Shown here: in pieces, positions 1 to 64,000 of the stretch
Layout of the letters: every line of letters starts with the position of its first letter
Position numbering within the stretch: the stretch's first letter is position 1
Assembly (NCBI GenBank): GCA_029210965.1
Contig: JARGFZ010000002.1
Location: 63,016-127,015 of the forward strand
Reading direction: 5' to 3'
DNA from: a bacterium
Lineage (GTDB): Bacteria; BMS3Abin14
DNA length: 64,000 nucleotides
The notes under the pieces: model-generated
Seen by the model: the letters and a program-made list of their open reading frames with translations, nothing else
The model's database searches: none
Told to the model about the DNA's origin: nothing
Made by a program: the position numbers and the translations under genes

Positions 1-1302
1 GTTGAGCACGATCCGCGGGAGCTTGTCCGTTCCCTACGTGAGGCCCTGGCCGAGATCGCGCAAAAGTCAGGGGGCAGCTTTGAAAAGATCAAGGCCGCAG
101 GCCTGGCTACTCAAAGATCGAGCATCGTATGCTGGGATAAGCATACGGGAGAGGCTTTGTCACCGGTCATCAGCTGGCAGGATACCCGGGCCAGGGAAAG
201 GATCATCCAGCTGGCACATCGGGCAGGTGAGGTCCACGAAAGAACAGGCCTCTTTTTGTCCGCCCATTACGGAGCCAGTAAGCTGGCCTGGTGTGTCGAC
301 AACATCCCGGAAGTAAAAAAAGCCCTGGATGCCCACAGGCTATGTTTCGGCCCCATGAGCAGTTTCCTGGTGTGGCAGTTGACCGCGGAGAAGCTCTTCG
401 TCAGCGACCCTGTCAGCGCATCACGCACCTTGTTGTGGAACCTCCACCGCAAGGAATGGGACAGCCAGCTCCTTGAAATGTTCAATTTGACCTCCAGCGC
501 CCTTCCGGTATGTGTTCCCACTGTACACGATTTCGGGAATATCAAGGCTGGAGGGCGACAGATTCCCCTTGCCCTTGTCACGGGAGACCAGTCAGCAGCC
601 ATGTATGCCTATGGGAAATTACAGCCGGAAACTGCTTATATGAACATTGGCACCGGCGCCTTTGTGTCCCGTTCCCTCGGACAGGAGCCCTTACTGGCAT
701 CCGGACTGCTGACAAGCGTTATCCACCAGCAGGATGATGTCAGTGAGTATGTCCTGGAAGGTACCATCAATGGAGCCGGCAGCGCTGTTCAGTGGCTGAG
801 GACAATCCACAGTACAGAGGACCTCTGGGAGCAAATGCCCGGGTGGCTGAGGACTGTGGAGGATCCGCCCCTGTTTCTGAACGGCATATCGGGTCTCGGA
901 GCACCTTTTTGGGTCCCGGATTTCGTTTCAGGTTTTGTGGGGAACGGTCAGCCCCATGAAAAGTTTGTTGCCGTGGTTGAAAGCGTTATTTTCCTGCTTC
1001 ACAGGAATGTGGTTGAGATGGGCTTCTCTCTGAGAGGACCTGAAAGGATCCAGGTCACCGGCGGGCTGGCTGCCCAGGACGGAATATGTCAGCGTATTGC
1101 AGATCTGACAAGAGTGCCCGTATATAGGCCTGCCCAGGCCGAAGCTACGGTGCGGGGAACGTGCTATCTCCTTGCAGGCAGGCCTGACCATTGGCCGGAA
1201 CCGGCGCCAGGACAGTGGTTTGAGCCTGGCGACGGAACACCCATCACCCAACGCTACAGCAGGTGGCTGGAGGAGATGGAGAAGAGAATTAACAGTAAAT
1301 AA
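1..1302 (+). CDS. FGGY-family carbohydrate kinase (glycerol kinase/xylulokinase-like), 5'-truncated at window edge
   Basis: Frame 1 is open from nt 1. Upstream of the listed Met the translation gives ...ATQRSSIVCWDKHTGEALSPVISWQDTR, the FGGY N-terminal motif. A GTGAFV-type motif follows downstream. Confidence 0.8.
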   Translation, partial: VEHDPRELVRSLREALAEIAQKSGGSFEKIKAAGLATQRSSIVCWDKHTGEALSPVISWQDTRARERIIQLAHRAGEVHERTGLFLSAHYGASKLAWCVDNIPEVKKALDAHRLCFGPMSSFLVWQLTAEKLFVSDPVSASRTLLWNLHRKEWDSQLLEMFNLTSSALPVCVPTVHDFGNIKAGGRQIPLALVTGDQSAAMYAYGKLQPETAYMNIGTGAFVSRSLGQEPLLASGLLTSVIHQQDDVSEYVLEGTINGAGSAVQWLRTIHSTEDLWEQMPGWLRTVEDPPLFLNGISGLGAPFWVPDFVSGFVGNGQPHEKFVAVVESVIFLLHRNVVEMGFSLRGPERIQVTGGLAAQDGICQRIADLTRVPVYRPAQAEATVRGTCYLLAGRPDHWPEPAPGQWFEPGDGTPITQRYSRWLEEMEKRINSK

Positions 1303-1643
1303 TAATTAAGGATTTCGGATTGAGTATTACAATCTTTTTTGAATCCAGAATCCAGAATTTCCGTTATTAGCTGATGCCGGGATAGAACCTGGACCGTTTT
1401 TCCCTCTCGGTTAAAGATCATATGACCTTATTGATGGATGCCCCATTCTACATCATTGTCAACGGATCGTGACGAGCGGATTACAGGCAGGGACAGGAAG
1501 TATGGCATCCGATGGCAAGGGAGTGCGGGAGGGTGGGTACAGGTGGATGATTGAGCGGAGAATATCTGTTAGGATGCCGGCTCGGGCCTGCTATCTGGAA
1601 GGGCTGTGAACGTTAACCTGTCGCGGGAACTCAAAGAGGAAGC

Positions 1644-2540
1644 ATGTACAGAACTGTCGTCATACTTATATCGGTATTTCTGATCACCCATGGCCTTGCC
1701 GGCGTTGTTCTGGCAAAAGAGGATGATCAACCCCCCACAGCTGTTCGTAAGCGCCTTGCCATGGAACAGGCGGCACGCGACAACCCCTTCCTGCTGCTGC
1801 CCCATCGGCCCAACTACATCCTGCCCCTGGCATACGCCCTGGACCCATACGAGGAGCCCTTCGGCCTGGCCCAGGGATCTTTCGACAAGATGGAAATGAA
1901 GTTCCAGGTCAGCCTGAAATTCCTCGTGAAAGAAGGCTTCATCGGCGGAGAGGGCAACCTCTACGCCGCCTACACCAACCGGTCCTGGTGGCAGGCCTAC
2001 AACCCCCGGAGGTCACGCCCCTTCCGGGAGACGAACCATGAGCCGGAGCTGTTCCTCATGTACGATACCGACTGGAAAATCCTGGGGATGAGGGCCACCA
2101 GTGTTATTTTTGGGATCTCCCACCAATCCAACGGGCAGGGAGGTGCCTTGTCAAGGGGCTGGAACAGGATCTATGGCAACCTGTTCCTCGAAAAGGGCAA
2201 CACGGTGTTCAGTGTGAAACCCTGGTACCGCATACCTGAGAGGGAAAAGAGCGCCCCCGATGAACCAAGGGGTGACGATAATCCGGATATCCGCCGTTAT
2301 ATGGGGTCGGTCGAAGCCGGCGTTCTATACTGCAAGGGAAAAAACTTTTTCACACTCATGCTCCGCAATAACCTCAGAAGGGACAACCGGGGTGCGGTGG
2401 AGGTTGGATGGTCCTATCCCCTGAAGGGCAGAATGAAAGGGTATGTGCAGGTTTTCGATGGTTACGGTGAAAGCCTCATCGACTACGACTACCGGATGAC
2501 AAGGGTGGGAGTGGGGATCCTGCTGGCGGATTGGTTGTAA
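1644..2540 (+). CDS. pldA: Outer-membrane phospholipase A1 (OMPLA)
   Basis: 298 aa with signal peptide. Carries the YNPRR...HEPELFLMY...ISHQSNGQ motifs typical of PldA. Confidence 0.85.
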   Translation: MYRTVVILISVFLITHGLAGVVLAKEDDQPPTAVRKRLAMEQAARDNPFLLLPHRPNYILPLAYALDPYEEPFGLAQGSFDKMEMKFQVSLKFLVKEGFIGGEGNLYAAYTNRSWWQAYNPRRSRPFRETNHEPELFLMYDTDWKILGMRATSVIFGISHQSNGQGGALSRGWNRIYGNLFLEKGNTVFSVKPWYRIPEREKSAPDEPRGDDNPDIRRYMGSVEAGVLYCKGKNFFTLMLRNNLRRDNRGAVEVGWSYPLKGRMKGYVQVFDGYGESLIDYDYRMTRVGVGILLADWL

Positions 2541-2543
2541 GAG

Positions 2544-2596
2544 CAGTGTAGAGTGCAGAGTGCAGAGTGTAGAGTGCAGAGTGCAGAGTGTAGAGG
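2544..2596. repeat. Tandem heptamer array (AGAGTGY)n, about 7-8 copies
   Basis: Read directly: agtgtag agtgcag agtgcag agtgtag ..., immediately downstream of pldA. Confidence 0.9.
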
Positions 2597-2599
2597 AAG

Positions 2600-2992
2600 A
2601 TGAATACAATGAAGTTCACAAGAAACTCATTGACGATGTTTGTTTTTCTATGGGTGCTGTCACCAGCGGCTGTTTCCTTTGCGGGGGAGGCGGATGTGGT
2701 GGGTGTAAAGGCAAGTTCCGGGAAAGATGGGACCTGGTCTTTCTCCGTCACGGTGAGGCATGACGACGAGGGATGGGATCATTACGCCGACCGGTGGGAG
2801 GTGCTGGGGCCTGATGGTGAGGTTCTCGGGACCCGGGTTCTCATGCACCCCCACGTTGGGGAGCAGCCCTTCACCAGAAGCCTGCGCGGAGTCAAGATCC
2901 CGAAGGGTGTCTCCAAGGTTGTGGTCCGTGCCCGGGACTCGGTCCACGAACATGGGGGTGAGGTGATGGAGGTTGAACTTCACCTGAAATAG
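2600..2992 (+). CDS. Small secreted hypothetical protein
   Basis: 130 aa with an N-terminal signal peptide (FVFLWVLSPAAVSFAGEA). I recognise no family. It is bracketed by heptamer arrays. Confidence 0.4.
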   Translation: MNTMKFTRNSLTMFVFLWVLSPAAVSFAGEADVVGVKASSGKDGTWSFSVTVRHDDEGWDHYADRWEVLGPDGEVLGTRVLMHPHVGEQPFTRSLRGVKIPKGVSKVVVRARDSVHEHGGEVMEVELHLK

Positions 2993-3025
2993 GTTGCCAT
3001 CTTGAAGGGTCTGTACAATTTTTTT

Positions 3026-3106
3026 CAGAACGCAGAACGCAGAACGCAGAACGCAGAACGCAGAACGCAGAACGCAGAACGCAGAACGCAGAACGCAGAA
3101 CGCAGA
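3026..3106. repeat. Tandem heptamer array (CAGAACG)n, about 11 copies
   Basis: Perfect 7-bp periodicity read directly. Spurious ORFs on both strands translate it as ...RSAFCVLRSAFCVL... Confidence 0.95.
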
Positions 3107-3153
3107 AGGGATAAGCAATGCTTTTGACAGCCGGACCGGGAGGGTGAACTGTT

Positions 3154-3205
3154 CGCCACGCGCCACGCGCCACGCGCCACGCGCCACGCTTCACGCTTTT
3201 CACGG
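3154..3205. repeat. Tandem heptamer array (CGCCACG)n, about 5 copies plus degenerate units
   Basis: cgccacg cgccacg cgccacg ... cttcacg read directly. Confidence 0.9.
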
Positions 3206-3270
3206 CACTTACTCCTTGACATTTTCACGGTCCAGGAGCATGTTTATAGGCTTTGCTATACAAATAACTT

Positions 3271-5100
3271 TTGAAAAGGGATGAAAACACAGTGCAGGAA
3301 AATACTCGTAACATCGCAATCATTGCCCACGTTGACCACGGTAAGACCACACTGGTGGATGCCATGCTCAAACAGTCAGGCGTCTTCAGGGAAAACGAAG
3401 TTGTCAACGAGCGCGTCATGGACTCCAACGACCTGGAACGGGAGAGGGGCATCACCATCCTCGCCAAGAACCTGAGCGTTCAATTTGAAGACATCAAGAT
3501 CAACATCGTCGACACCCCCGGACATGCGGATTTCGGGGGTGAGGTGGAACGGATCCTCACAATGGTGGATTCGGTCCTCCTCCTCGTGGACGCTGTGGAC
3601 GGTCCCATGCCTCAGACCCGTTTTGTCCTCAGGAAATCGCTGGAAATGGGGCTGCGCCCCATACTCATCGTCAACAAGGTTGACCGCCCGGCTGCCGACC
3701 CGCTCCAGGCCCAGAGCAGAGTGTTCGACCTTTTCTGCGATCTTGCCACGTCCGAGGATCAGCTGGACTTTCCCACACTGTTCACCAACGCCCGGCAGGG
3801 TACCGCTGTGCGGGACATGAGCGAGGAACCCCGGGACTTAAGACCCCTTTTTGAAACCATACGGGACAACATCCAGCCTCCTGAGGGAGATGCAAACGCT
3901 CCCTTCCAGATGCTGATCGCCCATATCGACTACAACGACTACCTCGGAAGGATCGCCACCGGCAAGGTGGCCAACGGCAGCGTTGCCGTTGGAGACAGTG
4001 TGGCCCTCATCAAGGGGGACGGAAGGGTAACCAAGGGTAGGGTCAGTCGTCTCCAGGCTCACGAGGGGCTTCGGCAGGTGGAGGTTAACACAGCTACTTG
4101 CGGCGATATAGTAACCATCGCCGGCCTGGAAAATGTGGAGATAGGCGAGACTGTCAGCGACCCCTCCCATCCCCAGGCCCTCCCCTATAGGGTCGTTGAC
4201 GAACCCACTCTGGCGCTGAACGTCATGGTCAGCACCAGCCCCTTCGCCGGTCGGGAGGGAAAGTACGTCACCTCCAGGAGCATTCGCGAGCGCCTGCACC
4301 GGGAGCTTCGCAACAACCTCTCCCTGCGGGTCGAAGATACTTCGAGCCCCGACACTTTTCGGGTGTCCGGCCGCGGGGAGCTGCACCTGGGGATCCTCCT
4401 TGAGAACATGAGGAGAGAGGGCTTCGAGATGGCTATTTCCAAGCCAGAGGTCATCTTCAAAGAGATCGACGGCGTTCGGATGGAGCCCATGGAATGTCTC
4501 GTGATCGACGTCCCCGTTGAGCATCAGGGAGCAGTCATGGCCAGCGTCGGGCCGCGCCGGGTGGAGCTGCTGTCAATGAACGCTGTCAACAACGAGGTCC
4601 GCCTGGAATTTTCCATACCAGCGAGGGGGCTCATCGGGCTGCGAGGAGAACTGCTCACCGAAACGCGGGGCACCGCGGTTTTGAACCATGTCTTTGACGG
4701 CTATGAACCGTACAAGGGAGATATGCCGGGCCGCAGGACCGGGGCCCTTGTGTCCATGGAGAACGGCTTCGTTACCGCCTATGCGCTGGAAATGCTTCAG
4801 GAGAGGGGAAAACTTTTCGTAGAACCGGGCACGGAGGTTTACGCGGGAATGGTGGTCGGAGAAAATGCGAAGGACAACGATCTGGATGTTAACCCGGTAC
4901 GCCTTAAGAAGCTGACCAACATGCGCTCTTCCTCGTCCGATTTCAGCGTCAAGCTGACACCTCCCACCGTCCTCACGCTGGAACAGGCCATGGAGTACAT
5001 TGGTGACGACGAGCTGGTGGAGATTACCCCCAATTCCATACGGTTACGCAAGAGGGTGCTCAACAAGAACTTCAGGACTAAAAAGAGCGCGGTGGTTTAA
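3271..5100 (+). CDS. typA: Translational GTPase TypA/BipA
   Basis: Has [17 protein letters not shown] (G1), DTPGHADF and NKVDR motifs. 609 aa is full BipA length. The listed start is TTG; an in-frame GTG at about 3292 with AAAGGG upstream is the more plausible start. Confidence 0.95.
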
Positions 5101-5221
5101 AAGCCTGGAAGAGTGAATAGTGAATAGGGAAGGTGGAATAAAGGCATCCCAGCCTTTTTCTTCCCCGTTCCCTATTCCAAATAGTTCCCTCGCGTTAAAA
5201 TCTTTCTCTACACGCTACACT

Positions 5222-6307: not shown

Positions 6308-6613
6308 GAAAATATTTTACACAAGGTCATTGTGTTGTAGGTTTGGCTTAGGAGCCAGGAGGAAATTAATTAAGAATTTGGAATTGAGCATTGAGGATTA
6401 ACATCAAAGGCCTCATTATTATAAATACTCAATTTTCAATGCTGCATCCGGAATCATATTTCCCAAACCTCAAACCTCAAACCCTTACCTTAATAATAAT
6501 AGGCCGTGTGCTGCAATCGTTCGGGTTTTGATCTTATTCTACGTTCTACATTCCACATTCTTCATTCTCACCAGACCCTAGACCCCAGACTCTAGACCCT
6601 ATACACTCCCCCC

Positions 6614-7225: not shown

Positions 7226-7450
7226 AATGATCCTGGTGAGATCCAGGAGAAGGACTGGCCCGGAATGATGATTGTTTAATCCCTCCAGGAATTCGGTTTC
7301 AAGTTTCAGATTCCGGGTTTCGGGAGTTACCTCGATACCTGGATACATGAGCCTTTTCTCCCCCTTACCCTCTCACCCACTGTCCCCCTCCGATTTTCTC
7401 CCCCGTCAGAGCCTGTCACGCCAAAGGCGTGACGTCACCGTGTCCCCGTG

Positions 7451-8062
7451 TCAGACGGTCTCCAGCTCCTTTGCTATTTCCGGCCACATCTTACCGAAAT
7501 CCTCCAGGGCTCTGTGCCTGTGGCTGAACCTGTTTTTCTCTTCGGGCCTCATCTGGGAAAAGGTCTTGTCCTCGGGGATATAGAAGAAGATGGGATCGTA
7601 CCCGAAGCCGGCTTTGCCATGCTTTTCAAAGGTGATGAGCCCATCCACGCGGCCTCTGGTCTGCCAGGTCCGGCCATCCGGGGAGGCCAGAGCCAGAACA
7701 CAGACAAAGTAGGCCAGCCTTTCAGCCTCGGGGACTGCTTTCATCCTTTCGAGGAGCAGCGCCATGTTGGCTTCGTTGTCCCCATCCTCGCCTGCGTAGC
7801 GGGAAGAGTGGACCCCGGGGTCGCCTCCCAGGATCGGGACAACCAGTCCGGAATCGTCTGCCAGGGCCGGCATCCCTGCCCACCGTGCAACCTCAAGAGC
7901 CTTCTTCTGCGCGTTGGCTTCGAAGGTATCGCCATCTTCAACGATTTCAGGAAATTTACCTTCCAGGTCTTCCGGGGAGACGATATCAATCCCGAGGCTA
8001 CTGAGAATAGTTCTTATCTCAACTATTTTTCCCGGGTTTGAAGTTGCCAATACGATCTTCAT
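7451..8062 (-). CDS. rdgB: dITP/XTP pyrophosphatase (Ham1/RdgB)
   Basis: Has MKIVLATSNPGKIVEI...FGYDPIF motifs; 203 aa. Confidence 0.9.
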   Translation of the reverse strand: MKIVLATSNPGKIVEIRTILSSLGIDIVSPEDLEGKFPEIVEDGDTFEANAQKKALEVARWAGMPALADDSGLVVPILGGDPGVHSSRYAGEDGDNEANMALLLERMKAVPEAERLAYFVCVLALASPDGRTWQTRGRVDGLITFEKHGKAGFGYDPIFFYIPEDKTFSQMRPEEKNRFSHRHRALEDFGKMWPEIAKELETV

Positions 8063-8133
8063 TGGTATCCACCGAGGTTTGGTTCTACTGCGTTCTGAGT
8101 GCTGCGTTCTGAAAGAAATTTTGGGTCAGTTAG

Positions 8134-8904: not shown

Positions 8905-8930
8905 GTGTTCTCCTTTACGCCTTTTTTTTT

Positions 8931-8957
8931 GAGATTTGAGATATGAGATTTGAGATC
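8931..8957. repeat. Tandem heptamer array (GAGATTT/GAGATAT)n
   Basis: gagattt gagatat gagattt gagatcc, between rph and murI. The same unit recurs at 62530..62557. Confidence 0.8.
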
Positions 8958-8961
8958 CGTT

Positions 8962-10461: not shown

Positions 10462-11750
10462 GGCCGTTCTCTCTTTATCTCACCCCGGAGAAGTCCCCTG
10501 TGATAATCCTCGATGGCCCGATAAAGCGCCGTGGCTATCTGCTTCTGATGGGCCTGGCGGTTCAGTCGGACCTCCTGCTCCGGGTTGGAGATATATCCGA
10601 TCTCTACCAAAGCCGCCGGCATCCTGGCACCCATGAGAACAGCCAGAGGAGCCTGCCGCACTCCTCTGTCCCGGCCCCTGAGTTCACCTATGATCCGTTT
10701 CTGAACCATGGATGCCAACTCGTTGCTCTCCTGGATATAACCAGTCTGGGCCATATCCCAGAGGATCGCCTCCAAAAGCGCTTTGTCGCCCTCATCCCCC
10801 TTGACCCCGAGAGCCTTATTTTCAATTTCGGCGTAGCTGCGGGCCTGCTTGTCAGTGGACTTAAGACTCAGGTAGTAAGTTTCATAACCCTCGATATCCC
10901 GGCGGAAGGTGGCGTTGGCGTGAATGCTCAGGAACAGGTCCGCGCGGTTGTTGTTGGCGATGGCCGTCCGTTCTTTAAGCCCTACATAGTAATCGGCTGT
11001 ACGAGTCAGGACGACCTTTATCCCGAGTCCTTCTTCCAGCCTGGTCTTGAGTATCTCCGTAACGGTGAGTACGAGGTCTTTTTCCCTTGTTCCAGTACTT
11101 CCCCTCGCTCCAAGGCTTCTACCCCCATGGCCTGGATCGAGAACTACAACCGAAAGCCCTTTCGGTTCCTTCTGGAGCACCTCTTCCGGAACATACTGGT
11201 CCCGACGGATGAAGGAGGCTGTTTTTGACAATTCCTCCGGGTTCTGACCCTGGAAACCCCCTGAACCCGGCTCTCCGAGTGTCAGTGCCCGGGAATCCAG
11301 TGAGGAAGAGCGTCCCGTGAGAGCAGGCAGCGCTTTGGTGAGAAAATCAGTGGGAATAGCCAGTCTGCCGCCCAGATTGACAAGGGGGCCCGACATGACA
11401 GAGAACAGTCCCCGTGACAGGACGAGGGGTGATTCCAACAGCAAACGGCAAGAACCCCGCTCACCAACCAGGTCCAACCTCTCCCCCAGGACATCCAGGC
11501 TCGAACGCAGATCGAAGACCTCAATGAGGGACTGCAGGTCGATCATCCCCGATCGTACGGTAAGCTGCCCGGCCTTGCCTCCCGGCAGGTGTACGGAGAT
11601 CTCCGATGTCAGGGAATAAGCCTTCATCGGCAAGGCGAGGGTTACCGAAAAAATGCAAACCAGGATAATTCGATTCAGGAGGTGTTGAAATAGGAAAGTC
11701 CTGCGTATCATATTCGAAACGGATGTGGAGTTAATAAACCGCTTCACCAT
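10458..11750 (-). CDS. N-acetylmuramoyl-L-alanine amidase (AmiC-like, amidase_3 with N-terminal AMIN-like region)
   Basis: VVLDPGHGG...DLFLSIHANA is the amidase_3 catalytic motif. Signal peptide present. Confidence 0.85.
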   Translation of the reverse strand: MVKRFINSTSVSNMIRRTFLFQHLLNRIILVCIFSVTLALPMKAYSLTSEISVHLPGGKAGQLTVRSGMIDLQSLIEVFDLRSSLDVLGERLDLVGERGSCRLLLESPLVLSRGLFSVMSGPLVNLGGRLAIPTDFLTKALPALTGRSSSLDSRALTLGEPGSGGFQGQNPEELSKTASFIRRDQYVPEEVLQKEPKGLSVVVLDPGHGGRSLGARGSTGTREKDLVLTVTEILKTRLEEGLGIKVVLTRTADYYVGLKERTAIANNNRADLFLSIHANATFRRDIEGYETYYLSLKSTDKQARSYAEIENKALGVKGDEGDKALLEAILWDMAQTGYIQESNELASMVQKRIIGELRGRDRGVRQAPLAVLMGARMPAALVEIGYISNPEQEVRLNRQAHQKQIATALYRAIEDYHRGLLRGEIKRERP

Positions 11751-11786
11751 TCACTGTTCACCTTTCACTATTCACCGTTTACAGCT

Positions 11787-14237: not shown

Positions 14238-14340
14238 TTGTTTTTCCTCGTCTTGGGTTGAAATGTCAGCGGAATGTCAGTTCCGAAAGCAGATTTAGAC
14301 AGAGTACGGCTGAGAGGGTTAAGTGTCAACATGGAACCCT

Positions 14341-14588
14341 TTAGCCCGGACTATTCACGAGGTTCTTTTCCGTTCTGGCGGCGTTGCTGTGTCGTTCCCT
14401 TGTGCGGAATACTAAAGTATGCCTCCGCGCTCCCTGGACAGTCGCCTTGCCGGAACGAAAAACTCCTCTCGTGACTATGTCCGGACAACCCCGCATAATT
14501 CATGATGTTTATCGTGCCATTCCCATTTATCCATATTTGCCAAACAGTTAGCTCACATCTCATCACCATCATGAATAATGCGGGCTAG
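14341..14588. mobile_element. MITE-like non-autonomous element, copy 1 (imperfect TIRs of about 20 bp, TA flanks)
   Basis: About 90% identical to 34331..34587 over about 245 bp. Termini are gcccggactattcacgagg ... catcatgaataatgcgggc, the end being an imperfect reverse complement of the start. Both copies are flanked by TA. Confidence 0.7.
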
Positions 14589-16179: not shown

Positions 16180-16188
16180 CAGGGTCGA

Positions 16189-27444: not shown

Positions 27445-27732
27445 ACTGCTAACCGTACACTGTTAAGCCTCAGGGAGTCCTGGCTGATCGATAGGTCATT
27501 ATAACGGGTCATGGGGGGAGTATACCGGAATCAGGAGTCAGGAGCCAGAATCCAGGAGACAGGGGGTAATAAAAGTACGCAGGACGTAGAACGCAGCACG
27601 CAGGAGGAAAACAGAGCGAAGGGCGCCAAGAGCAGTTCGGAGTGCGGTTCGCCTACCTCGGCTGGTGCAAAGAGACATTCCATTGAGATTGCATGACAAG
27701 TGAGCGATAAACCTGGATCCTAGACCCTGGTT

Positions 27733-34280: not shown

Positions 34281-34330
34281 AATAAAGTACCCGGTACCCA
34301 GGAGCCAGTAGCCAGGAGGAAAGAACTGTA

Positions 34331-34587: not shown

Positions 34588-34730
34588 GTGTCGAAGTGTC
34601 GAGGTAAAACCTTCAATAATCAACCTGCCACAGCGATTAGTCACGGCAAACCAAAGGCGACTACGGAAGCTGAATTAATCTTTGATTTTTGGTCAACTTT
34701 GAGATCTGAGATCTGAAATTTGAAATTTGA

Positions 34731-35192: not shown

Positions 35193-35597
35193 CTCAGGCA
35201 ATGCCTCCCCTCGGCAAAATATCCCGGTCAAACACCTGTTAGCAGAAGATAAGTCGGTGGGCTTTCTTTATGATTGCCTACCGAACAACACAATATTTTA
35301 GAGGAATACAGAAATAAAATCCACCATCTAATAACGGATTTTTTTAAACGCAGAGTTCGCGAAGGACGCAGAGGAAGGCTCTAAACTTGGGAAAGCGCGG
35401 TTACTTTAATAGCAGAATGCAGAACGTAGAACGTAGAACGTAGAATTAAACTCGAACCCGAACCCGAATGTTCTGTCATTCCGGGCAAAGCGCAAGGGAT
35501 GACCCGGAATCCAGTATCTTAAAGTGATTAAAGCCTTAACGCAGGAGGAGATCAAAAGCATGTTGATTACAGTAATCAGCTGACAGACAATTTCTCT

Positions 35598-35677
35598 TGC
35601 ACCTTGCACCTTGCACCTTGCACCTTGCACCTTGCACCTTGCACCTTGCACCTTGCACCTTGCACCTTGCACCTTGG
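35598..35677. repeat. Tandem heptamer array (GCACCTT)n, about 11 copies
   Basis: Perfect 7-bp period read directly. It is preceded at about 35413..35470 by (CAGAACG/TAGAACG)n and (AACCCGA)n arrays. Confidence 0.95.
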
Positions 35678-35678
35678 A

Positions 35679-38476: not shown

Positions 38477-38631
38477 CGCGATCCCGGTTACTATAAGAGG
38501 CGACCTCTTTTTACCGCAGAGGACGTCACGCCAGAGGCGTGATGTCGCCGCGTCACCGCGTCACCCTGTCATGTGAATTTCAATCTACCCCGTGTCCCCC
38601 GCCTGCCCTGAGCTTGTCGAAGGGCGTCCCC

Positions 38632-46968: not shown

Positions 46969-48042
46969 ATGTATCTTGAGGGTGTGGGGTTTGACGATCG
47001 TTTTGCCCGGGATTTCGAATCACTGAAGTTTGAGGGAGTTGTACCGGGCCGGGTGATCTGGCAGAGTGCCTACAGTTACAGGGTGCAGTGTGAGGACGGG
47101 GAGATCGCCGCTGAACTCTCAGGGAAGCTCAAAGCCGGGGATCTTCCAGCAGTGGGCGACTGGGTGGCTGTACGCCCTGCAGCTGTGGATGAGATGGGCA
47201 CCATACTGGCCATCCTGCCGCGAAAAAGCGCCTTTTCGAGAAACACAGCAAGTAAAGGCGTGAATGAGCAGGTCGTAGCAGCCAACATAGACGAAGTGCT
47301 CATCGTCACGGACCTTGACCGGGATTTCAATCTGCGCCGAATCGAAAGGTATATCACCCTGGTCTATAACAGCGGAGCGAGCCCGGTGGTGGTGCTTAAC
47401 AAAACCGATCTCGCAACTGATGTGGAAGCGGTGTTTGCCCAAACCGAGGCGGTTTCTCCAGGAGTCCCCATCTTCGCGGTGAGCGCTGAGAAAAATCAGG
47501 GGATAGAGCAGCTGAAAAACCACATCGGTCAAGGCAAGACCGTGGCCTTTCTGGGCTCCTCGGGCGTCGGCAAATCAACCATCATAAACTGCCTTCTGGG
47601 CGAGGACCGCATGGAGGTGGGCGAAGTCAGGGAAGCGGACGGCAAGGGACGGCACACAACCACTCACCGTGAACTGGTCCGCCTCCCGGGGGGCGGCGCG
47701 GTCATCGATACTCCGGGGATGCGGGAGATCCAGGTCTGGGGTGATGAAGAAGGCCTGGTTGAGGCTTTCCCGGAAATAGAGGCCCTGACTGCCGCCTGCC
47801 GTTTCCGGGATTGCCGCCACGATTCGGAGAAGGGTTGCGCTGTACTGGAAGCGTTGGACTCTGGCCGCCTGGATAAGGGGCGCTTCGAAAGTTATATGAA
47901 GCTCAGGGGAGAATTTGAAAGCCTCGAGGTCAGAAAGAGCAAAAACGCCCGCCTGGAAGAGAGGCGTGAAGGGAAAAGGTTTGCCAAGATGGTACGTGAA
48001 GTAAAGCGTCATAATCCGAAGAGAAAAAACCGTGACTCGTGA
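46969..48042 (+). CDS. rsgA: Ribosome small-subunit-dependent GTPase A
   Basis: Circularly permuted GTPase: NKTDL before GSSGVGKST. C-terminal zinc finger CRFRDCRHDSEKGC. Confidence 0.9.
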   Translation: MYLEGVGFDDRFARDFESLKFEGVVPGRVIWQSAYSYRVQCEDGEIAAELSGKLKAGDLPAVGDWVAVRPAAVDEMGTILAILPRKSAFSRNTASKGVNEQVVAANIDEVLIVTDLDRDFNLRRIERYITLVYNSGASPVVVLNKTDLATDVEAVFAQTEAVSPGVPIFAVSAEKNQGIEQLKNHIGQGKTVAFLGSSGVGKSTIINCLLGEDRMEVGEVREADGKGRHTTTHRELVRLPGGGAVIDTPGMREIQVWGDEEGLVEAFPEIEALTAACRFRDCRHDSEKGCAVLEALDSGRLDKGRFESYMKLRGEFESLEVRKSKNARLEERREGKRFAKMVREVKRHNPKRKNRDS

Positions 48043-48084
48043 CTCGTGAACCGTGATCCGTGATCCGTGATCGGTGATCGGTAA
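48031..48084. repeat. Tandem heptamer array (CGTGAYC/GGTGATC)n, about 8 copies
   Basis: cgtgact cgtgact cgtgaac cgtgatc x3 ggtgatc x2. The first units overlap the last rsgA codons and its stop. Confidence 0.9.
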
Positions 48085-48099: not shown

Positions 48100-48560
48100 C
48101 TTCCCCGGTTTAAAGGGTTACCTTGCATAACCCTGCCCTTCGACGCCCTGTCGTTTGCTCAGGGTCCCGAGCTTAACCGAGGGACGGGGAGCGGCCTTGG
48201 CACGGGCCAATCTGCCTGCCCTGAGCTTGTCGAAGGGCGAGAGACAGCATTTGTCGCTTTTATAGAAACCGGGATCGCTTCGCATGGGACTCGGCTCGCG
48301 ATGACCCGTCTTCGTCCTTCGCACTTCGCCGTGGCAGACAAGAGCGACTGGATTCCGGGTCATCGTGTTCTCTCTGCCCGGAATGACGTTGGTGGAGGTT
48401 TCCCCAGGCTGAGATTTCCTCCGCCTGTCTCCCTGTCTCAACGTCTCCGTGGTGAAAAAAACATCCCCTTTATTGTAACCGGCCTTTCCCCAAGTCACCG
48501 GCTTCCTCTGCCTGCCCTTCGATCCCGCCGATGGCGGGATCGAAGAATGGTAAAATTGAT
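48100..48560. repeat. GC-rich multi-hairpin noncoding region carrying motifs shared with other loci
   Basis: Part of a 594-bp gene-free stretch. Motif ctgccctgagcttgtcgaagggcg recurs at about 38598. Motif ttcgacgcc.tgtcgtttgctcagggtcccgagc is similar to 63885..63925. tcccgccgatggcgggatc is similar to 63932..63950. Confidence 0.5.
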
Positions 48561-48636
48561 CGCATTAATATTAACATACTTAATTGATTTGTTTTTATCT
48601 TGATAAAAACGATAAGTTGTAATATAATTTCAGATT

Positions 48637-50213: not shown

Positions 50214-50275
50214 AGATAAGTGAACAGTGAAAAGTGAACTGTGAACCGTTAACTTCTTCCGAAAGGAGAACGACT

Positions 50276-50653: not shown

Positions 50654-50658
50654 AATTC

Positions 50659-50695
50659 AGTAGCCAGTAGCCAGTAGCCAGTAGCCAGTAGCCAG
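50659..50695. repeat. Tandem heptamer array (AGTAGCC)5
   Basis: Read directly, immediately after the dfx stop. Confidence 0.9.
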
Positions 50696-50712
50696 ATTTA
50701 AAATGTGTTTGA

Positions 50713-50752
50713 ACCCGGAGAAGAGATTCTCCGGGTTTTTTTATCCAACCTT
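50713..50752 (+). terminator. Rho-independent terminator after dfx
   Basis: cccggagaagagattctccggg hairpin followed by a T8 run. Confidence 0.75.
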
Positions 50753-51080: not shown

Positions 51081-51111
51081 CTGGGTACTGGGTACCGGGT
51101 ACTGGGTACCG
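51081..51111. repeat. Tandem heptamer array (CTGGGTA/CCGGGTA)n
   Basis: ctgggta ctgggta ccgggta ctgggta, just upstream of the RBS of the 4Fe-4S gene. Confidence 0.85.
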
Positions 51112-52011: not shown

Positions 52012-52263
52012 GGTATCGTGCATGCGTAGAGCGTGAGTACGTGGGTGCGGGAACGCCGCCTGATGGGTTTTTAGGCCGGAGATCAGACTTCCAGCAGCTC
52101 TTGTTTATTGCTGATTACTGATCACCGATCAACGATCACTGAAATATTTACAGCCGGGGAAGGAGGAACCGCAGTTTCCTTTTCCCCCGGCTGTAGTTTT
52201 GATAATATGATACACCGTGGTTATATTCATTCGTAGACGAATACCCAAACCAGGAGGCACATA

Positions 52264-53588: not shown

Positions 53589-53623
53589 GGATCAGACGCG
53601 GCGACGCGGAGACACGGAGACAC

Positions 53624-53656
53624 AAAGGCGGTCACAACCCGCCCTTTCTTTTTTGG
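53624..53656 (+). terminator. Rho-independent terminator after the second ferritin-like gene
   Basis: aaaggcgg tcacaac ccgccctttcttttttg: a GC stem followed by a T-run. Confidence 0.5.
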
Positions 53657-53692
53657 GGAAGATGATTAAATAGAGAAAGTGGCAAGAGATCA

Positions 53693-53717
53693 GGGATAAG
53701 GGATAAGGGATAAGAGA
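53693..53717. repeat. Tandem heptamer array (GGGATAA)3-4
   Basis: Read directly. Confidence 0.85.
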
Positions 53718-54189: not shown

Positions 54190-54946
54190 AAAGCAGAACC
54201 CAGTAGCCAGGATCCAGTAGCCAGTAGGGCAAACCGCCTGACACGGAGACACGGTGACGCGGAGACACGGGGTTAAAACTGGTGGTCGGTGATCGGTAAA
54301 GCCGAACCCGAATTCGAACCCGGGAGCGATCTTAGGCAAAAGCTTTTGACATGGATGAAGGGGATAGATGGGATGATTGGTGAAACCCTGAAATCCCCTC
54401 TTGTCATTGCGAGCGAAGCGCGGCAATCCCGGTTTACATAAAGACGGTGTTTTCCACTACCGTGAATGTTGGTTTGTTTTTGCTAGTCACGAGCTACTAG
54501 CCACAAGATCTCTTTTGAATCTTGAATTGCCCTTTCGCTCAGTCGCCAAGTCGCCTAGTCGGAAAGTCGGTTGTTAATGACCCTTATCTTCCATCTCTAT
54601 CTAATCGCTCCTCTTGTCCTGGTAGTTTTCATATACCGTTCGGGTAAGCGATCCTGGTAAACCCTCGTAACCGTTCCGGTAGCCTTCTATTCCCTCCCCG
54701 TACTTGTTGTGATCGGATTCTACCTTCTGCGCACTCCCATACAGCAGGGGAGATTCCTGGCAGAGTTCGGCCCGATCTTGAGCCTGGTCTTTCCTCCGGA
54801 AGATCTTTATGTCCCCTTGGCTTCTGTGGCTCTCGGACCGGTCAAGAAAGAATACAGCGCTGATTTTATTCATAAATATGTTGGCTATCATGCGGTGGAG
54901 ATATCCATACCCGGTAAGTCGAAAATGAGATGCCGGGCTCAAAGCT

Positions 54947-56052
54947 GAAGTGCAACACTTAGAGGAGTTAAAGTGTTGCAATGGAAAAGACATACGAGCA
55001 TTTGGATTGCACGGAACGTGCGATGATTCAATTGGGGCTGGAGCAAGGGCTTTCGTTGCGATCAATCGCCCGAAGTTTGCATCGCCCCGTGAGTACAGTG
55101 AGTCAGGAATTACATCGGAATGGTTGGGAGCCTCCCGCGGTTCGTATGGGGCGGCGGGGCCGACGTCCGGTGGCGGGCGGTTATCAGGCCGTGCGAGCTG
55201 AACAACGCGCCAGACAAGTGGAGTGTCAGCCGAGAAAAGCCAAGCGACTGGTTCCGGGCGAGGCGCTCTGGAACGAAGTCGTTAATCTCTTGAAGGCTGG
55301 CAACTCACCGGAGCAGGTTTCTGCTACACTGAAGCGTATGCACCCTGAAGAGCCGCAGTTCCAGGTCAGCCATGAGACCATCTACACGGCGATCTACGCG
55401 ATGCCGCGCGGCGAGTTGCGCAAGGAGATCATTGCCTTGTTGCGACAATCACGCAAGAAGCGTCGGCCACGCACCCGCGGGGAAGATCGACGTGGCAGCA
55501 TACCGAACATGGTCAGCATTCATGAGCGACCTGCCGAAGTGGAAGAACGGCTGGTCCCGGGCCACTGGGATGGTGATCTGATCAAGGGGGCGCGCAACGC
55601 CTCAGCTGTCGGGACACTGGTGGAACGCAGCTGCTTGTTTGTGACCCTGGCCAAAGTCGACAATGCCAGCACCGAAACCGCAGAAAAAGGATTCAGCTTC
55701 GTTCTCAACCGGATTGATGCCCAACGGCGATTGAGTATGACCTACGACCAGGGCAAGGAGATGGCCTGTCACGAGAAGTTGGCCGAGAACACGAAAATCA
55801 AGGTCTACTTTGCCGACCCACATAGCCCTTGGCAACGCGGTATCAACGAGAACACCAATGGGTTGCTGCGCCAGTATTTGCCAAATAGAACAGACCTGTC
55901 TGCTTACTCTCAAAAGGAGCTTGACCAGATTGCCTTGAAGCTTAACACCAGGCCGAGGAAAAGCCTTGGCTGGAAGTGCCCGGCGGAAATCTTCTTGCCG
56001 GACTTTAATTTTGAAGAATATTATGGGCGCATCTTAAACCCTGTTGCACTTC
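54947..56052 (+). mobile_element. IS30-family insertion sequence (about 1.1 kb) with 11-bp terminal inverted repeats GAAGTGCAACA
   Basis: Left end gaagtgcaaca (about 54947) and right end tgttgcacttc (about 56052) are exact reverse complements. A single transposase ORF lies between them. Confidence 0.8.
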
Positions 56053-56060
56053 GAACTTGA
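54981..56060 (+). CDS. IS30-family transposase (DDE)
   Basis: N-terminal HTH (LSLRSIARSLHRPVSTVSQELHRN) and a DDE core (HWDGDLI...TYDQGKEM...DPHSPWQRGINENTNGLLRQY). Confidence 0.85.
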   Translation: MEKTYEHLDCTERAMIQLGLEQGLSLRSIARSLHRPVSTVSQELHRNGWEPPAVRMGRRGRRPVAGGYQAVRAEQRARQVECQPRKAKRLVPGEALWNEVVNLLKAGNSPEQVSATLKRMHPEEPQFQVSHETIYTAIYAMPRGELRKEIIALLRQSRKKRRPRTRGEDRRGSIPNMVSIHERPAEVEERLVPGHWDGDLIKGARNASAVGTLVERSCLFVTLAKVDNASTETAEKGFSFVLNRIDAQRRLSMTYDQGKEMACHEKLAENTKIKVYFADPHSPWQRGINENTNGLLRQYLPNRTDLSAYSQKELDQIALKLNTRPRKSLGWKCPAEIFLPDFNFEEYYGRILNPVALRT

Positions 56061-56760: not shown

Positions 56761-57489
56761 ATGAAGAAAACGATACTTCTGTTTTTCACAATGGCACTGC
56801 TAGGCAGCTCCCAGGCCGGTGCCCAGAGCCTGGCCGTCTACGGCACTTCGGGGCCCTATGGGCCTATTGGCGAATGTGCCCAGCTCTTTTCGGATGAAAA
56901 CGACGTCCAGGTTCAGGTGACTTCGGCGGCCCGGGGTGAGTGGATGAAAGAGGCTTTGGAAAAGGCTGACCTCATTTTCGAGGCGGCGGAATACACCATG
57001 GACGAATTCATTCAAAAGAACCCGGGGTTCATTGACACACGTTACCGGTATAGCCTCGGTGTGCGGCCATCCGGCATCCTTGTCAGGCCAAACAACCCGA
57101 AAAGGATCAGGAAGTTGGCTGACCTTTACAACCCCGGCATCAAGGTCATGGTCGTTGCTGGTGGCGGACAGACGGGAATATGGGAAGATATGGCGGCAAG
57201 AAAAGGTGATATCTCGACCCTGCGCAAAAACGTCACGGCTATTGCCGCAGATGAGAACGAGGCAATACGGATCTGGAAGGAGAGCAAAGAGCTCGATGCC
57301 TGGATCACCTGGGAATCATGGCACTACCGCCTGAAGACGATCACCGAGTTTGTGCCGGTTGCTGAAAATATCAGGGTCTATCGGAGCACGCCCATCGCCA
57401 TCACAACCCGCTCGCAGAACAAAGAGCTTTCCTTCAAGTTCGTCACCTTCATGCAGTCCGACAAGGCCCAGGAGGTTTTCAAAAAATGA
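56761..57489 (+). CDS. Periplasmic substrate-binding protein (ModA-like molybdate/tungstate/sulfate SBP family), orphan
   Basis: Signal peptide. The LAVYGTSGPYGPIGECAQLF...QVTSAARGEWMKEALEKADLIFEAAE pattern resembles ModA-type SBPs. No intact permease or ATPase is adjacent. Confidence 0.5.
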   Translation: MKKTILLFFTMALLGSSQAGAQSLAVYGTSGPYGPIGECAQLFSDENDVQVQVTSAARGEWMKEALEKADLIFEAAEYTMDEFIQKNPGFIDTRYRYSLGVRPSGILVRPNNPKRIRKLADLYNPGIKVMVVAGGGQTGIWEDMAARKGDISTLRKNVTAIAADENEAIRIWKESKELDAWITWESWHYRLKTITEFVPVAENIRVYRSTPIAITTRSQNKELSFKFVTFMQSDKAQEVFKK

Positions 57490-60922: not shown

Positions 60923-60926
60923 GGGT

Positions 60927-62363: not shown

Positions 62364-62715
62364 ACTCCAGTCCAACGGCTAATGTCCAAAGTCTAAAGTG
62401 GAACGCGTGCCGCTTGTCATTGCGAGCCGAATCCTGAGCGACTTGTCACGGCGAAACTGGAACCTGGAACACCAACCGAAGGTTGGCGTCATCGCGAGCC
62501 GATACCATGCGAAGCGATCTCGGGTTTTTGAGATTTGAGGTCTGAGATTTGAGATTCGCCCTTTTTACAGGGATGAAGGGGATGAAAGGGATTTGGAAAA
62601 ACAGGTTCTATGTCAATAAATCTGGTTACCTACGTTCTGACCACACCTGACACAAAAGGATCTTCATCTGAAGATGAGGGTCCCTAATATAACTTGTACC
62701 GCTAATGCTGTTTTC

Positions 62716-62970
62716 TTATTCCAGGGGTTCCGTGCTTTCCTCCTCGTAATTCCAGTTCATGCGGCGCTGGAACTCCAGATCGATCCACTTTGCCGTATTG
62801 TCTTCAAGCTTCCTGGCGATCTCTCGTCTGTCACCGCCTTTTTTAATGCGAACCTTGAATTCCTTGTTGTACCACTCGGCCGCATCGGAACGGACGTCTC
62901 TCATGATGTCCTCTTTCGAGCGCCTGTAGTTCATACCGGGGATGATCAGGTGATCATATTCCACTTCCAA
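62716..62970 (-). CDS. Small hypothetical protein
   Basis: 84 aa, charged. I recognise no family. Confidence 0.3.
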   Translation of the reverse strand: MEVEYDHLIIPGMNYRRSKEDIMRDVRSDAAEWYNKEFKVRIKKGGDRREIARKLEDNTAKWIDLEFQRRMNWNYEEESTEPLE

Positions 62971-63025
62971 TTCCTCCTTCCAGTCTCCCCTCTTGATATT
63001 AAATTTAAGTCAGACCCACCTCAAT

Positions 63026-63712
63026 TCAACTCCTGACCCCTGTTGCTTCTTGTAAAAGTCCCGCTCCCAGCTCAAAGGCCTTCTCGCAGTCAACGGGGAA
63101 CCGCTCTTCCCTGCTCTTCGCCTTGTCCTCCGGTTTCCACCGGTCGGCTACAACTTCAGAGTAGTCCTCGAACTGTAGCGTGTCCATGCTCAGCTGATAG
63201 GCCGAGTGCCCGAAGATCCTCGAAAAATAGCCCTGGTTCATGTCGAAATGGCTGTAGTAGATCTCGTACATCCCGCGGCTTTTAAGTTCTTCATCAGCCA
63301 TGTTCATCGTGTAGATGAAGGCGGTCCGCAACCTGCCGGGAAAGAGAGTCCGGGGGGGATTGGTGTAGGTGAGGTAGGGGAACATCCAGCGCTCCAGGAA
63401 GGACCTCATCTCACCTGTGACGGCTCCGAAGTAGATGGGCGAACCCAGGACGACAGCGTCCGCCTCCTCTACCTCCTTAAATACAGGCATTAGATCGTCT
63501 TTCACGGCGCACCTCCCGTAGCTTTTCCCTCCCCTGGTCTTGCAGGCGAAACAGCTGAGACACCCTTTAAATTCAAGGTCGTACAGGTGGATGAGCCTCG
63601 TTTCGGCGCCCTTCGATAAAGCGCCCTCAAGGGCCTTTGCAATAAGGGTCGCCGTGTTCCACTTTTTCCTCGGGCTTCCGTTAAGGCCAATGACTTTTTT
63701 CCGATCCGGCAT
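63026..63712 (-). CDS. Flavodoxin-like fold NAD(P)H-dependent FMN reductase family protein (iron-sulfur flavoprotein-like)
   Basis: VIGLNGSPRKKWNTATL ... AVVLGSPIYFGAVTG motifs plus a CLSCFAC Cys cluster. Confidence 0.75.
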   Translation of the reverse strand: MPDRKKVIGLNGSPRKKWNTATLIAKALEGALSKGAETRLIHLYDLEFKGCLSCFACKTRGGKSYGRCAVKDDLMPVFKEVEEADAVVLGSPIYFGAVTGEMRSFLERWMFPYLTYTNPPRTLFPGRLRTAFIYTMNMADEELKSRGMYEIYYSHFDMNQGYFSRIFGHSAYQLSMDTLQFEDYSEVVADRWKPEDKAKSREERFPVDCEKAFELGAGLLQEATGVRS

Positions 63713-64000
63713 GGGATTCCTCCATTAAAGACAGGGAAGTTGGAACGGTAATATCTGGGGTTCATCCGGGAAATGAACACCTTGAACCCAATAGGTACTT
63801 CGACAAGTTTAAAACCTTTAACGCGGAGGGCTGCCGTTGAAACCCTGTATCTGATTTGATTCTAGCTGCGGCTCTCTGCCTTTCGACGCATTTCATTTGC
63901 TCAGGCTCCCGAGCCTGTGGAGGGACGGTACGGCCACAGGTCCCGCCAAAGGCGGGATCCTGCGTAACTCTGTATTATAGCTTTAACGTTCTTATAAAAC

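Follow-up and report, generated by a model that had tools for sequence, protein, structure and literature searches.

What generates a repeat period of seven bases in the intergenic DNA of a bacterium when the unit that is repeated differs from one spacer to another? The question is raised by a stretch of 64,000 nucleotides from a bacterium of the GTDB lineage BMS3Abin14 (NCBI GenBank assembly GCA_029210965.1, contig JARGFZ010000002.1, positions 63,016 to 127,015 of the forward strand), hereafter the window, in which short arrays of seven-base units recur between genes. With moderate confidence we interpret these arrays as heptanucleotide simple-sequence repeats that are made and turned over by slippage and are tolerated in untranslated DNA. 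To a similar degree we favour the view that they reflect a lineage-wide habit of the genome, and neither one element nor a set of switches. The analysis covers the 64-kb window and approximately 120 kb of related loci, which were found by protein searches and exact look-ups and carry L-numbers as locus labels; all comparisons of length rest on assembled consensus sequences.

Array detection in the window with Tandem Repeats Finder returned 59 rows, mostly with a period of 7 or of its multiples 14 and 21. An earlier reading of the same DNA, hereafter the original prediction, had listed 22 arrays, essentially all of which were recovered, 18 of them with a true period of 7. Its statement that the unit length is always 7 was too strict, since three listed arrays (53594, 54240 and 54541) repeat every 8 bases and a fourth, at 62569, every 9; at 8088-8120 (- strand), 14-21 nt past the stop codon of the RNase PH gene, there is no array but two copies of CAGAACGCAG set 14 nt apart. 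Four arrays are perfect, namely those at 3026-3107 (CAGAACG, 11.7 copies), 35596-35676 (CTTGCAC, 11.6 copies), 3154-3189 and 50658-50695. We then determined the lag-7 identity, the fraction of bases matching the base 7 positions downstream, as the original prediction had proposed. In intergenic DNA this value was 0.315, compared to 0.254 +/- 0.004 in 300 shuffles (z=14.1), and lags 14 and 21 also stood above the shuffles (z=10.6 and z=7.1, respectively). The autocorrelation of coding DNA displayed the codon period of 3 only. Arrays make up 964 of the 9,676 intergenic bases (~10%), and the lag-7 signal dropped to z=3.1 once they were masked.

Under a single scoring rule, the window contains 13-22 arrays of period 7 and 2-4 of period 8, while periods 6 and 9 are represented by 0-4 arrays (about one each) and periods 5, 10 and 11 by none. 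As a control set, we used 160 unrelated loci centred on bipA (2.38 Mb), with BipA identities of no more than 66%, in which 49 period-7 arrays were found and 136 loci had none at all. The density of period-7 arrays is 3.4 per 10 kb in the window and 0.2 per 10 kb in the controls, a 17- to 25-fold difference. The lag-7 signal, the excess of period 7 and the density relative to the controls show that the phenomenon is real and far beyond chance. Because many different units share one period, the process behind it is length-specific and is not the spread of one mobile repeat, a point on which the original prediction was borne out.

Arrays are spaced at approximately one per 2-3 kb. They do not occupy almost every intergenic spacer, as had been stated: 18-20 of the 43 spacers of at least 20 nt (~45%) carry one, and many long spacers are free of them. 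Coding DNA constitutes 85% of the window, yet it holds a single one of approximately 27 period-7 arrays (at 40128, inside an open reading frame (ORF)); the others are intergenic or overlap a stop codon only. A few of the unrelated control loci contain clusters of heptamer arrays of their own: L004 (17618-18330, Citrifermentans bremense), L091 (15122-15850), L015, L109 and L125. Units of the GTTCTAC and ACGTTCT type, resembling the GTAGAAC/CAGAACG family of the clade studied here, occur at two Geobacteraceae loci of the control set, and L109 carries arrays of approximately 10 copies of CAGTTGC and AACTGGA.

To place the trait phylogenetically, we considered the proteins encoded in the window and their homologues. 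The nearest named relatives are Geobacteraceae when judged by BipA (66% identity, among the matches listed) and Syntrophales when judged by formate-tetrahydrofolate ligase (FTHFS; 82-84%), and the BipA homologues that are 74-97% identical group into an isolated clade, represented mostly by short contigs. Loci of this clade contain 2.3-10 arrays per 10 kb, with the exception of L083, which contains none. Arrays are present at a locus whose FTHFS is 92% identical, and are absent at a locus with 89% identity and at the Syntrophales-like loci (82-83%). Sister lineages free of arrays are represented by GCA_016937135.1 and the L174-L177 genomes. The trait is specific to this clade and has a sharp phylogenetic on/off boundary.

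Relatives also revealed how the arrays change. The promoter and leader of bipA (3217-3291, + strand, from the -35 box TTGACA towards the GTG start codon at 3292) are 85-87% identical in relatives, whereas the arrays directly upstream have been replaced by other units. In the window these are 5.1 copies of CGCCACG together with two decayed units (3154-3198), ending ~19 nt upstream of the -35 box; in L165 they are ten copies of CGATCAC, and in L166-L170 ten copies of GAGTGYA together with short arrays. Although L165 and L166 encode an identical BipA protein, the ten CGATCAC copies abut the -35 box in one and no array does so in the other. Unrelated arrays were seen at both flanks of bipA in these two loci (L165 4500-4870 versus L166 1-200, and L165 6668-6860 versus L166 1995-2235), which suggests very fast turnover or recombination in the spacers around this conserved gene. 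On the 3' side of bipA, all relatives with 87-97% identical BipA retain a degenerate 7-periodic stretch, in which the expanded sub-unit differs by relative (GTGATCG, GTAATCA or AGTGAAT).

Where orthologous arrays could be aligned, they differed by whole units, in line with the copy-number check that the original prediction had put forward. The CAGAACG array has 11.7 copies in the window and 2.7 in L164, and L168 has one AGAGTGT unit (+7 nt) more than L167, L169 and L170. In the spacer following PLA1, seven AGAGTGC/T units in the window correspond to three AGAGTCC units in L164, a single base change having spread across the array. L167 and L168, which derive from near-identical JGI populations, differ by three indels, every one of them inside an array (a single 7-mer unit, a single 8-mer unit of a GTAACGGA array, and approximately three units of a GAAGGAT array), and 7 of their 15 single-nucleotide polymorphisms (SNPs) fall within one array. 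In another pair the arrays are stable: the window and the sister assembly GCA_032251125.1 are 99.9% identical, with 13 SNPs over 14.7 kb and 5 SNPs over 14.3 kb, and all ~20 arrays compared are equal in length. Given the unit-step indels, the homogenisation and the conserved promoter beside replaced arrays, we conclude that arrays evolve in steps of whole units and by homogenisation, at a faster pace than the DNA around them, but are no hypermutable switches.

These comparisons also bear on whether the arrays could have been created by collapsed or chimeric reads, as the original prediction had allowed. Contigs of the clade are mostly short and that of L166 starts inside an array, so arrays do disturb assembly. 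However, arrays of this kind are found, frequently at orthologous positions, in independent assemblies of relatives from NCBI, ENA (MEGAHIT k141) and JGI that derive from different samples, on which ground we dismiss the artefact and give it practically no weight. In addition, two metagenome-assembled genomes are base-identical over ~20 arrays, and each array is shorter than a read.

Slipped-strand mispairing or unequal exchange would produce every one of the structures and changes found: units placed head to tail, whole-unit gain and loss between relatives, point mutations that homogenise an array, higher-order repeats of 14 and 21 nt, and decay into mosaics of related units. Two arrays illustrate this especially well, the one at 2545, which is a perfect repeat of a 21-mer, and the one at 48031, in which identical units lie next to each other in blocks. 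In this clade slippage probably favours steps of 7 nt strongly, with steps of 8 nt as a minor class. Arrays would persist only where gaining or losing a number of bases not divisible by three does no damage. Such places would be chiefly the stretch from a stop codon to the following terminator or ribosome-binding site, and also DNA upstream of promoters. If they survive mainly in such stretches, most arrays would therefore be part of transcripts, in 3'-untranslated or intercistronic regions. They are probably, for the most part, near-neutral passengers, as indicated by an array that is present or absent beside identical BipA, by copy numbers that are fixed at 99.9% identity, and by the housekeeping genes that surround them. 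We further propose a limited and drifting repertoire of units that is common to many loci, in part because arrays may move within small duplicated modules.

The position of the arrays relative to genes is consistent with such a preference for harmless sites. Among the 29 intergenic arrays, 13 lie no more than 12 nt from a stop codon, when 4.6 +/- 1.4 are expected from random placement inside the same spacers (P<2e-4). For start codons, at the same distance, the corresponding numbers are 3 observed and 4.0 expected. Four of six convergent spacers carry arrays, as opposed to one of the six divergent spacers, which contain promoters only. The neighbouring genes have housekeeping functions and include PLA1, bipA, Ham1, RNase PH (rph), murI, an amidase gene, PBP1, rsgA, the rubrerythrins and desulfoferrodoxin. 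We considered stop triplets within the units as a cause of the proximity to stop codons (present in 9 of the 13 stop-proximal arrays in sense and in 2 of the 13 in antisense) and rejected this idea, as the numbers are suggestive only and two families contradict it.

At three places the order is stop codon, array and then a terminator-like hairpin. The first comprises 2.6 copies of GAATCCA (1341-1358, + strand), 38 nt past the stop codon of an FGGY kinase gene and followed by a hairpin at 1377-1392. The second is the perfect array of 5.4 CAGTAGC units (50658-50695, + strand), 4 nt past a stop codon and followed by a 12-bp terminator hairpin at 50711-50738. The third is a period-8 array of 3.5 GACRCGGN units (53594-53623, + strand), 6 nt past a rubrerythrin stop codon and followed by a hairpin at 53627-53643. 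The original prediction was right that some arrays occupy precisely the interval from a stop codon to the following ribosome-binding site. At 2545-2595 (+ strand), 7.3 copies of AGAGTGY, organised as a perfect 21-nt super-repeat, occupy the 59-nt gap between the PLA1 stop codon (2540) and an ATG at 2600; at 50219-50253 (+ strand), 4-5 copies of AGTGAAC extend from the rubrerythrin stop codon to the ribosome-binding site of the desulfoferrodoxin gene; and at 11738-11779 (- strand; also delimited as 11743-11775), 5.9 degenerate copies of GTGAAnn lie between the PBP1 stop codon and the start of the amidase gene. In two cases the array itself provides the stop codon. The second unit of the (CGTGAYC) array at 48031-48082 (7.1 copies, + strand) terminates rsgA, and 2.5 copies of the period-8 unit GACACGGN (7434-7453, - strand) overlap the stop codon of Ham1/RdgB.

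Several further arrays follow stop codons at short distances. On the + strand these are the 11.7 CAGAACG copies at 3026-3107, which begin 33 nt past a stop codon; 3.4 copies of AGTGAAT at 5108-5131, 7 nt past the bipA stop codon in a convergent spacer, with the 3' end of the array forming one arm of a strong predicted hairpin (-34 kcal/mol, z=-4.5); two copies of GTACCCG followed by three of AGCCAGK at 34287-34318, 6 nt past a stop codon; and four copies of CCAGTAG at 54200-54227, 10 nt past the FxsA stop codon. On the - strand they are 4.1 copies of TTTGAGA at 8928-8956 (TCTCAAA in the sense of the gene), 5 nt past the murI stop codon; two copies of TGAGATC followed by two of TGAAATT at 34698-34730, which adjoin the stop codon of the ORF at 34731-35231; and the 11.6 CTTGCAC copies at 35596-35676, 2 nt past the stop codon of a metallophosphoesterase gene.

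Fewer arrays are located on the start side of genes. The sole divergent spacer with arrays contains 2.9 copies of CAAACCT (6464-6483), 4.7 degenerate copies of ATTCTAC (6536-6568) and 4.1 copies of AGACCCT (6573-6601), the last ending 12 nt upstream of an ORF start at 6614. An array of 4.1 CTGGGTA copies (51081-51109) lies in a 5' leader and ends 20 nt upstream of the ATG at 51130. The promoter of bipA is the only one that could be located by conservation, and there the arrays lie upstream of the -35 box, with none between the promoter elements.

The original prediction had proposed that changes of 7 bp alter promoter geometry, so that the arrays would act as phase-variable switches or as insulators, and this idea fits poorly with the above distribution. 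Phase-variable simple-sequence contingency loci are known from Haemophilus and Neisseria, and the arrays of the window share with these the short tandem unit and the change by whole units. Copy numbers do differ by whole units between relatives and between samples, the array at 51081 sits in a 5' leader and that at 3154 directly upstream of a promoter. In contrast to contingency loci, however, the arrays lie outside ORFs and outside the spacers between -35 and -10 elements, where none was found, they are enriched at stop codons and not near starts, and their neighbours are housekeeping genes. Moreover, hypervariability is lacking between the two 99.9%-identical genomes, in which ~20 arrays show no change of length across 18 SNPs in 29 kb. 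We therefore consider phase variation very unlikely.

A location next to stop codons would also be expected of elements that act in RNA. The arrays could be unstructured heptad platforms in 3'-untranslated or intercistronic RNA for a single-strand-binding protein with a footprint of ~7 nt, for which a cold-shock-domain protein or an S1-like protein with an oligonucleotide-binding (OB) fold would be a candidate, and which could affect termination, mRNA stability or translational coupling. This explanation is the least improbable of the alternatives, and we regard it as unlikely. The proximity to stop codons, the order of stop codon, array and terminator, the constant orientation of each family to the upstream gene, and the retention of arrays at orthologous 3' positions while their sequence changes all speak for it, as does the predicted lack of structure in several arrays (CAGAACG, z=+3.3). 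Precedents exist in two other groups of bacteria. In marine Beggiatoaceae, TAACTGA direct repeats occur in 2-6 copies just upstream of start codons, and binding by cold-shock proteins (CSP) or S1 has been proposed for them, it being noted that one CspB protein binds to each heptamer (MacGregor 2015, PMC4679880). Heptamer repeats of Nostoc are reported to affect the expression of recF and recO (preprint 10.1101/2022.06.06.494920).

Against a role in RNA, the units are very diverse and have no common motif, and folding predictions revealed no common structure among the arrays, some of which form zipper hairpins while others are unstructured. Approximately half of the arrays are far from stop codons, where they occur in both orientations, and entire arrays are present or absent beside an identical bipA gene. 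The window has no Rfam match, either at the gathering threshold or at E<=0.5, and encodes no candidate binding protein. A narrower version, to which we assign a somewhat lower probability still, holds that the arrays are polar, stop-anchored elements, each family being kept in one orientation through a function in the transcript or through strand-specific deposition tied to transcription. The function, if there is one, might be to offer an OB-fold RNA-binding protein a heptad-spaced landing pad in the stretch that separates the stop codon from the terminator or the following gene, and this part we hold to be doubtful to the same degree.

The original prediction had described the unit of each array as locus-specific, which did not hold up. 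Comparing the 26 array consensuses of the window in any rotation and on either strand, we found 19 pairs that differ by no more than one mismatch, where chance would give 6-7 and none of 2000 shuffles exceeded 17. Families thus recur at several loci and in related genomes, and six of them (CAGAACG, TTTGAGA, CCAGTAG, GTGAnnn, AGAGTGY and CGTGATC) are represented at no fewer than three loci each. The CAGAACG/GTAGAAC family is found at 3026, 8088, 27577, 35412 and 6537, the TTTGAGA family at 8928, 34700 and 62527, the CCAGTAG family at 34298, 50658 and 54200, and the GTGAnnn family at 5108, 11743, 50219 and 48031. AGAGTGY occurs at 2545 and at the related loci L166 and L167, and an 8-mer family of GACACGGA at 7434, 53594 and 54240.

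Such recurrence would also be expected if arrays spread within small mobile or duplicated modules, in which hairpin motifs and arrays travel together in the manner of miniature inverted-repeat transposable elements, and do not arise de novo at each locus. In support of this, a 106-nt composite at 62488-62592, which consists of a hairpin motif (GTCATCGCGAGC...), 4.3 copies of TTTGAGA (62527-62556) and 2.7 copies of the 9-mer AGGGATGAA, recurs with 88.7% identity elsewhere in this genome (L081 1230-1334). Array and flank are similar together at three pairs of loci, 3017-3049 and 8088-8120 (91%, including an AATTTnTTT flank), 6519-6568 and 35414-35463 (80%, in the complementary orientation), and 8926-8959 and 62525-62558 (91%). 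Identical units occur at non-orthologous loci of related genomes, and the repeat-rich spacers also contain dispersed hairpin motifs and an IS30-like transposase gene. However, most arrays do not share their flanks, neither terminal inverted repeats nor target-site duplications were seen, changes by unit steps and homogenisation happen in place, and mobility alone does not account for one period across unrelated units. As a complete explanation we consider module spread improbable; it is more likely a contributor.

Recurring families of 3-5 copies have been given another meaning in Geobacter metallireducens, phylogenetically the nearest described case. Multicopy tandem hepta- and octanucleotide elements of fixed copy number were there interpreted as sites for a regulator or as RNA elements (Aklujkar et al. 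2009, PMC2700814). They form families of 3-5 tandem 7- or 8-mers at many intergenic places, including some opposite-strand pairs, and period 8 is a minor class in the window as it is in that organism. By analogy, the arrays could be double-stranded DNA sites for a global regulator or nucleoid-associated protein, and both the arrays abutting the -35 box of bipA and some inverted pairs would suit this reading. One such pair lies 3' of bipA, where (AATTGAG)n is followed ~40 nt on by its reverse complement (CTCAATY)n in L165 (6730-6800) and in L167 (11858-11945); the pair could form a long hairpin in the convergent spacer. On the other hand, there are too many distinct units for one or a few regulators, the arrays are concentrated past stop codons and rare in divergent promoter spacers, and their presence varies beside an identical housekeeping gene. 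Unlike the elements of G. metallireducens, the arrays of the window have 2.5-11.7 copies and vary between relatives, and the Geobacter consensus units GGACCGG, MTYCTGA, GTTGCTYN and TWGTTGAY do not form tandem arrays in the window or the clade loci, save for one MTYCTGA dimer. We consider such a role a little less probable even than module spread.

Heptanucleotide slippage, the reading we favour, also leaves certain observations without an explanation, and these count against it. Across six clade genomes, the units of 66 arrays form 140 near-identical pairs when 55 are expected (maximum 72), and 95 of these pairs, compared to an expected 39, join different genomes. Slippage alone predicts no unit repertoire that is common to loci and genomes. 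Nor does it predict a rule of orientation, and yet within each of five families the stop-proximal arrays have a constant orientation to the upstream gene, an outcome with a chance probability of ~1/256; most cases in relatives agree, with one exception. The bias towards stop codons, which the account would place in harmless gaps, is weak at the loci of relatives, with 7 of 47 arrays within 12 nt (4.2 expected, P=0.12) and 15 within 30 nt (9.9 expected, P=0.04), although it points in the same direction as in the window. Gene boundaries for these measurements were taken from ORFs, from Pfam matches and from gene calls precomputed for the sister assembly. Finally, the preference for a step of seven is left without explanation. 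Because slippage does not account for the orientation rule and the shared units, a role in RNA and a spread within duplicated modules stay in play beside it.

Comparable repeats have been described in other bacteria. Mazel and colleagues, in 1990, reportedly described short tandemly repeated repetitive (STRR) heptamers of Calothrix and Nostoc, with units said to be CCCCAGT, TTGGTCA and CAACAGT. Multi-family heptamer arrays have long been known from cyanobacteria, including the GGGGAYT arrays of Nostoc PCC 7120 and the mixed heptamers of Microcystis (PMC4692102, PMC4679880). As in the window, several families each occupy many intergenic loci, in 2 to >20 copies, and related strains differ extensively in the length and sequence of the arrays; in the window too the several families occur at many loci and in both orientations. 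The cyanobacteria belong to another phylum, however, and the units of the window are neither G-rich nor expected to form quadruplexes. No tandem dimer of CCCCAGT, TTGGTCA, CAACAGT or GGGGAYT was found in the window or the clade loci, and the same is true of TAACTGA. The TAACTGA repeats of Beggiatoaceae resemble the arrays studied here in being intergenic and in lying beside unrelated genes, including housekeeping genes, but they consist of one dominant unit upstream of start codons, whereas the window has many units that lie mainly downstream of stop codons. The GGGAATC repeats of Xanthomonas belong to one G-rich family that could form quadruplexes (Rehm et al. 2015, PMC4692102). Related species carry these arrays between the same genes, their length and sequence varying extensively, and inverted pairs occur, as in the window, which differs in its many families that are not G-rich; no tandem array of GGGAATC is present in the window or the clade loci.

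In more general terms, heptanucleotides are the most abundant class of long simple-sequence repeats (LSSRs) in repeat-rich prokaryotes, and polymerase slippage has been put forward as their origin (Mrázek 2007, as summarised in PMC4679880 and PMC4692102). As characterised in those summaries, LSSRs have tandem units of 5-11 nt with 7 dominant and many units per genome, are mostly non-coding and phylogenetically scattered, and are attributed to slippage, all of which is reminiscent of the window. Consistent with this, we found an excess of head-to-tail units in the window, 7 as the commonest unit length, and confinement to non-coding DNA. Distinct from the cases in the summaries are the position of the lineage near Geobacteraceae and Syntrophales and the ~10% of intergenic DNA that arrays occupy. 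We found no description of stop proximity or of family orientation in the literature on heptamer repeats, within which Mrázek 2007 is represented by summaries of its content. An excess of non-coding seven-nucleotide tandem repeats with many units has been on record since 1990 and 2007, and the arrays do not constitute a new class. They add a very dense example from an uncultured lineage related to the former Deltaproteobacteria. As the trait switches on and off between close sister lineages, the sharp boundary can be used to seek the cause of the seven-base preference, and the clade is suited to testing why long repeats prefer seven bases. The stop-side placement and the family orientation point to the transcript or to a strand-specific process, and not to promoters.

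There is also a practical warning, in that arrays create false ORFs on the opposite strand and accompany the fragmented assemblies of the clade. Units lacking stop triplets give rise to the false long ORFs at 2660-3187 (-), 2892-3203 (-), 35406-35672 (-) and 35604-35906 (+), whose products would be repeats of 7-residue peptides and which are a hazard for annotation.

The window contains several further arrays. A degenerate array of ~5 GGAGYCA copies (27527-27563) is followed by 3.9 copies of ACGCAGR (27577-27603), a member of the CAGAACG family. At 35412-35445, five copies of GYAGAAC are followed by a TAAA..CGAACCCGAA flank, which recurs after arrays at 6519 (as the reverse complement) and 54297. 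Approximately 4.6 degenerate copies of GATCAnY (52107-52139) represent the reverse complement of the family at 48031, and 4.4 copies of AAGGGAT are present at 53684-53714. The two other period-8 arrays consist of 3.9 copies of GACACGGA (54240-54270, + strand) and 3.6 copies of AGTCGCCA (54541-54569). Between 49641 and 53588, co-directional oxidative-stress genes (rubrerythrin/ferritin-like, desulfoferrodoxin, a 4Fe-4S protein and two rubrerythrins) have an array at almost every junction.

A second kind of repeat concentrates in the same repeat-rich spacers as the arrays. These dispersed, hairpin-like repeats begin with GTCATTSCGRGC, as in GTCATTCCGGGC...GATGACCCGGAATCC, have no Rfam match, and are located at 35475-35515, 48266-48305 (-), 48347-48387 (-), 54403-54430, 62416-62440 and 62488-62526. 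The interval 48100-48636 consists of ~500 nt of non-coding DNA made of dispersed repeats, including a perfect 26-nt match between 48214-48239 and 38601-38626; a mechanical ORF within it (48118-48498) lacks a Pfam match and is probably no gene. The IS30-like transposase gene (54981-56060, HTH_38 and rve integrase core) lies directly downstream of the most repeat-rich spacer of the window (54190-54980), and SNPs between the two assemblies cluster in this gene (55105-55914). An SBP_bac_11 gene (56761-57489; L081 13434-14174) is in two pieces in the sister assembly, where a run of N at window position 57295 (a 12-nt difference) marks a scaffold gap or a pseudogene. Scanning of the window for tRNA and tmRNA detected none.

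We also discarded two ideas about the wider organisation of the window. GC skew changes sign near 6 kb and 26 kb, but because it follows gene orientation and there is no cluster of DnaA boxes, it is no evidence for a replication origin at 26-28 kb. The 20-kb polysaccharide cluster had appeared to be array-poor as a recent island; its 2 arrays do not differ significantly from the ~4 expected from intergenic length. This cell-wall and polysaccharide gene cluster is flanked by a 250-nt direct repeat, the copies of which (14339-14588 and 34338-34587) are 92% identical, have starts 19,999 nt apart, and contain ORFs without a Pfam match (14351-14572 and 34411-34644). Up to 14,344 the sister assembly (L173) agrees with the window; beyond that point it continues into a third, more distant copy of the 250-nt sequence, beside a transposase-like helix-turn-helix gene. 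This repeat is a multicopy element, and it marks a rearrangement or else an assembly junction.

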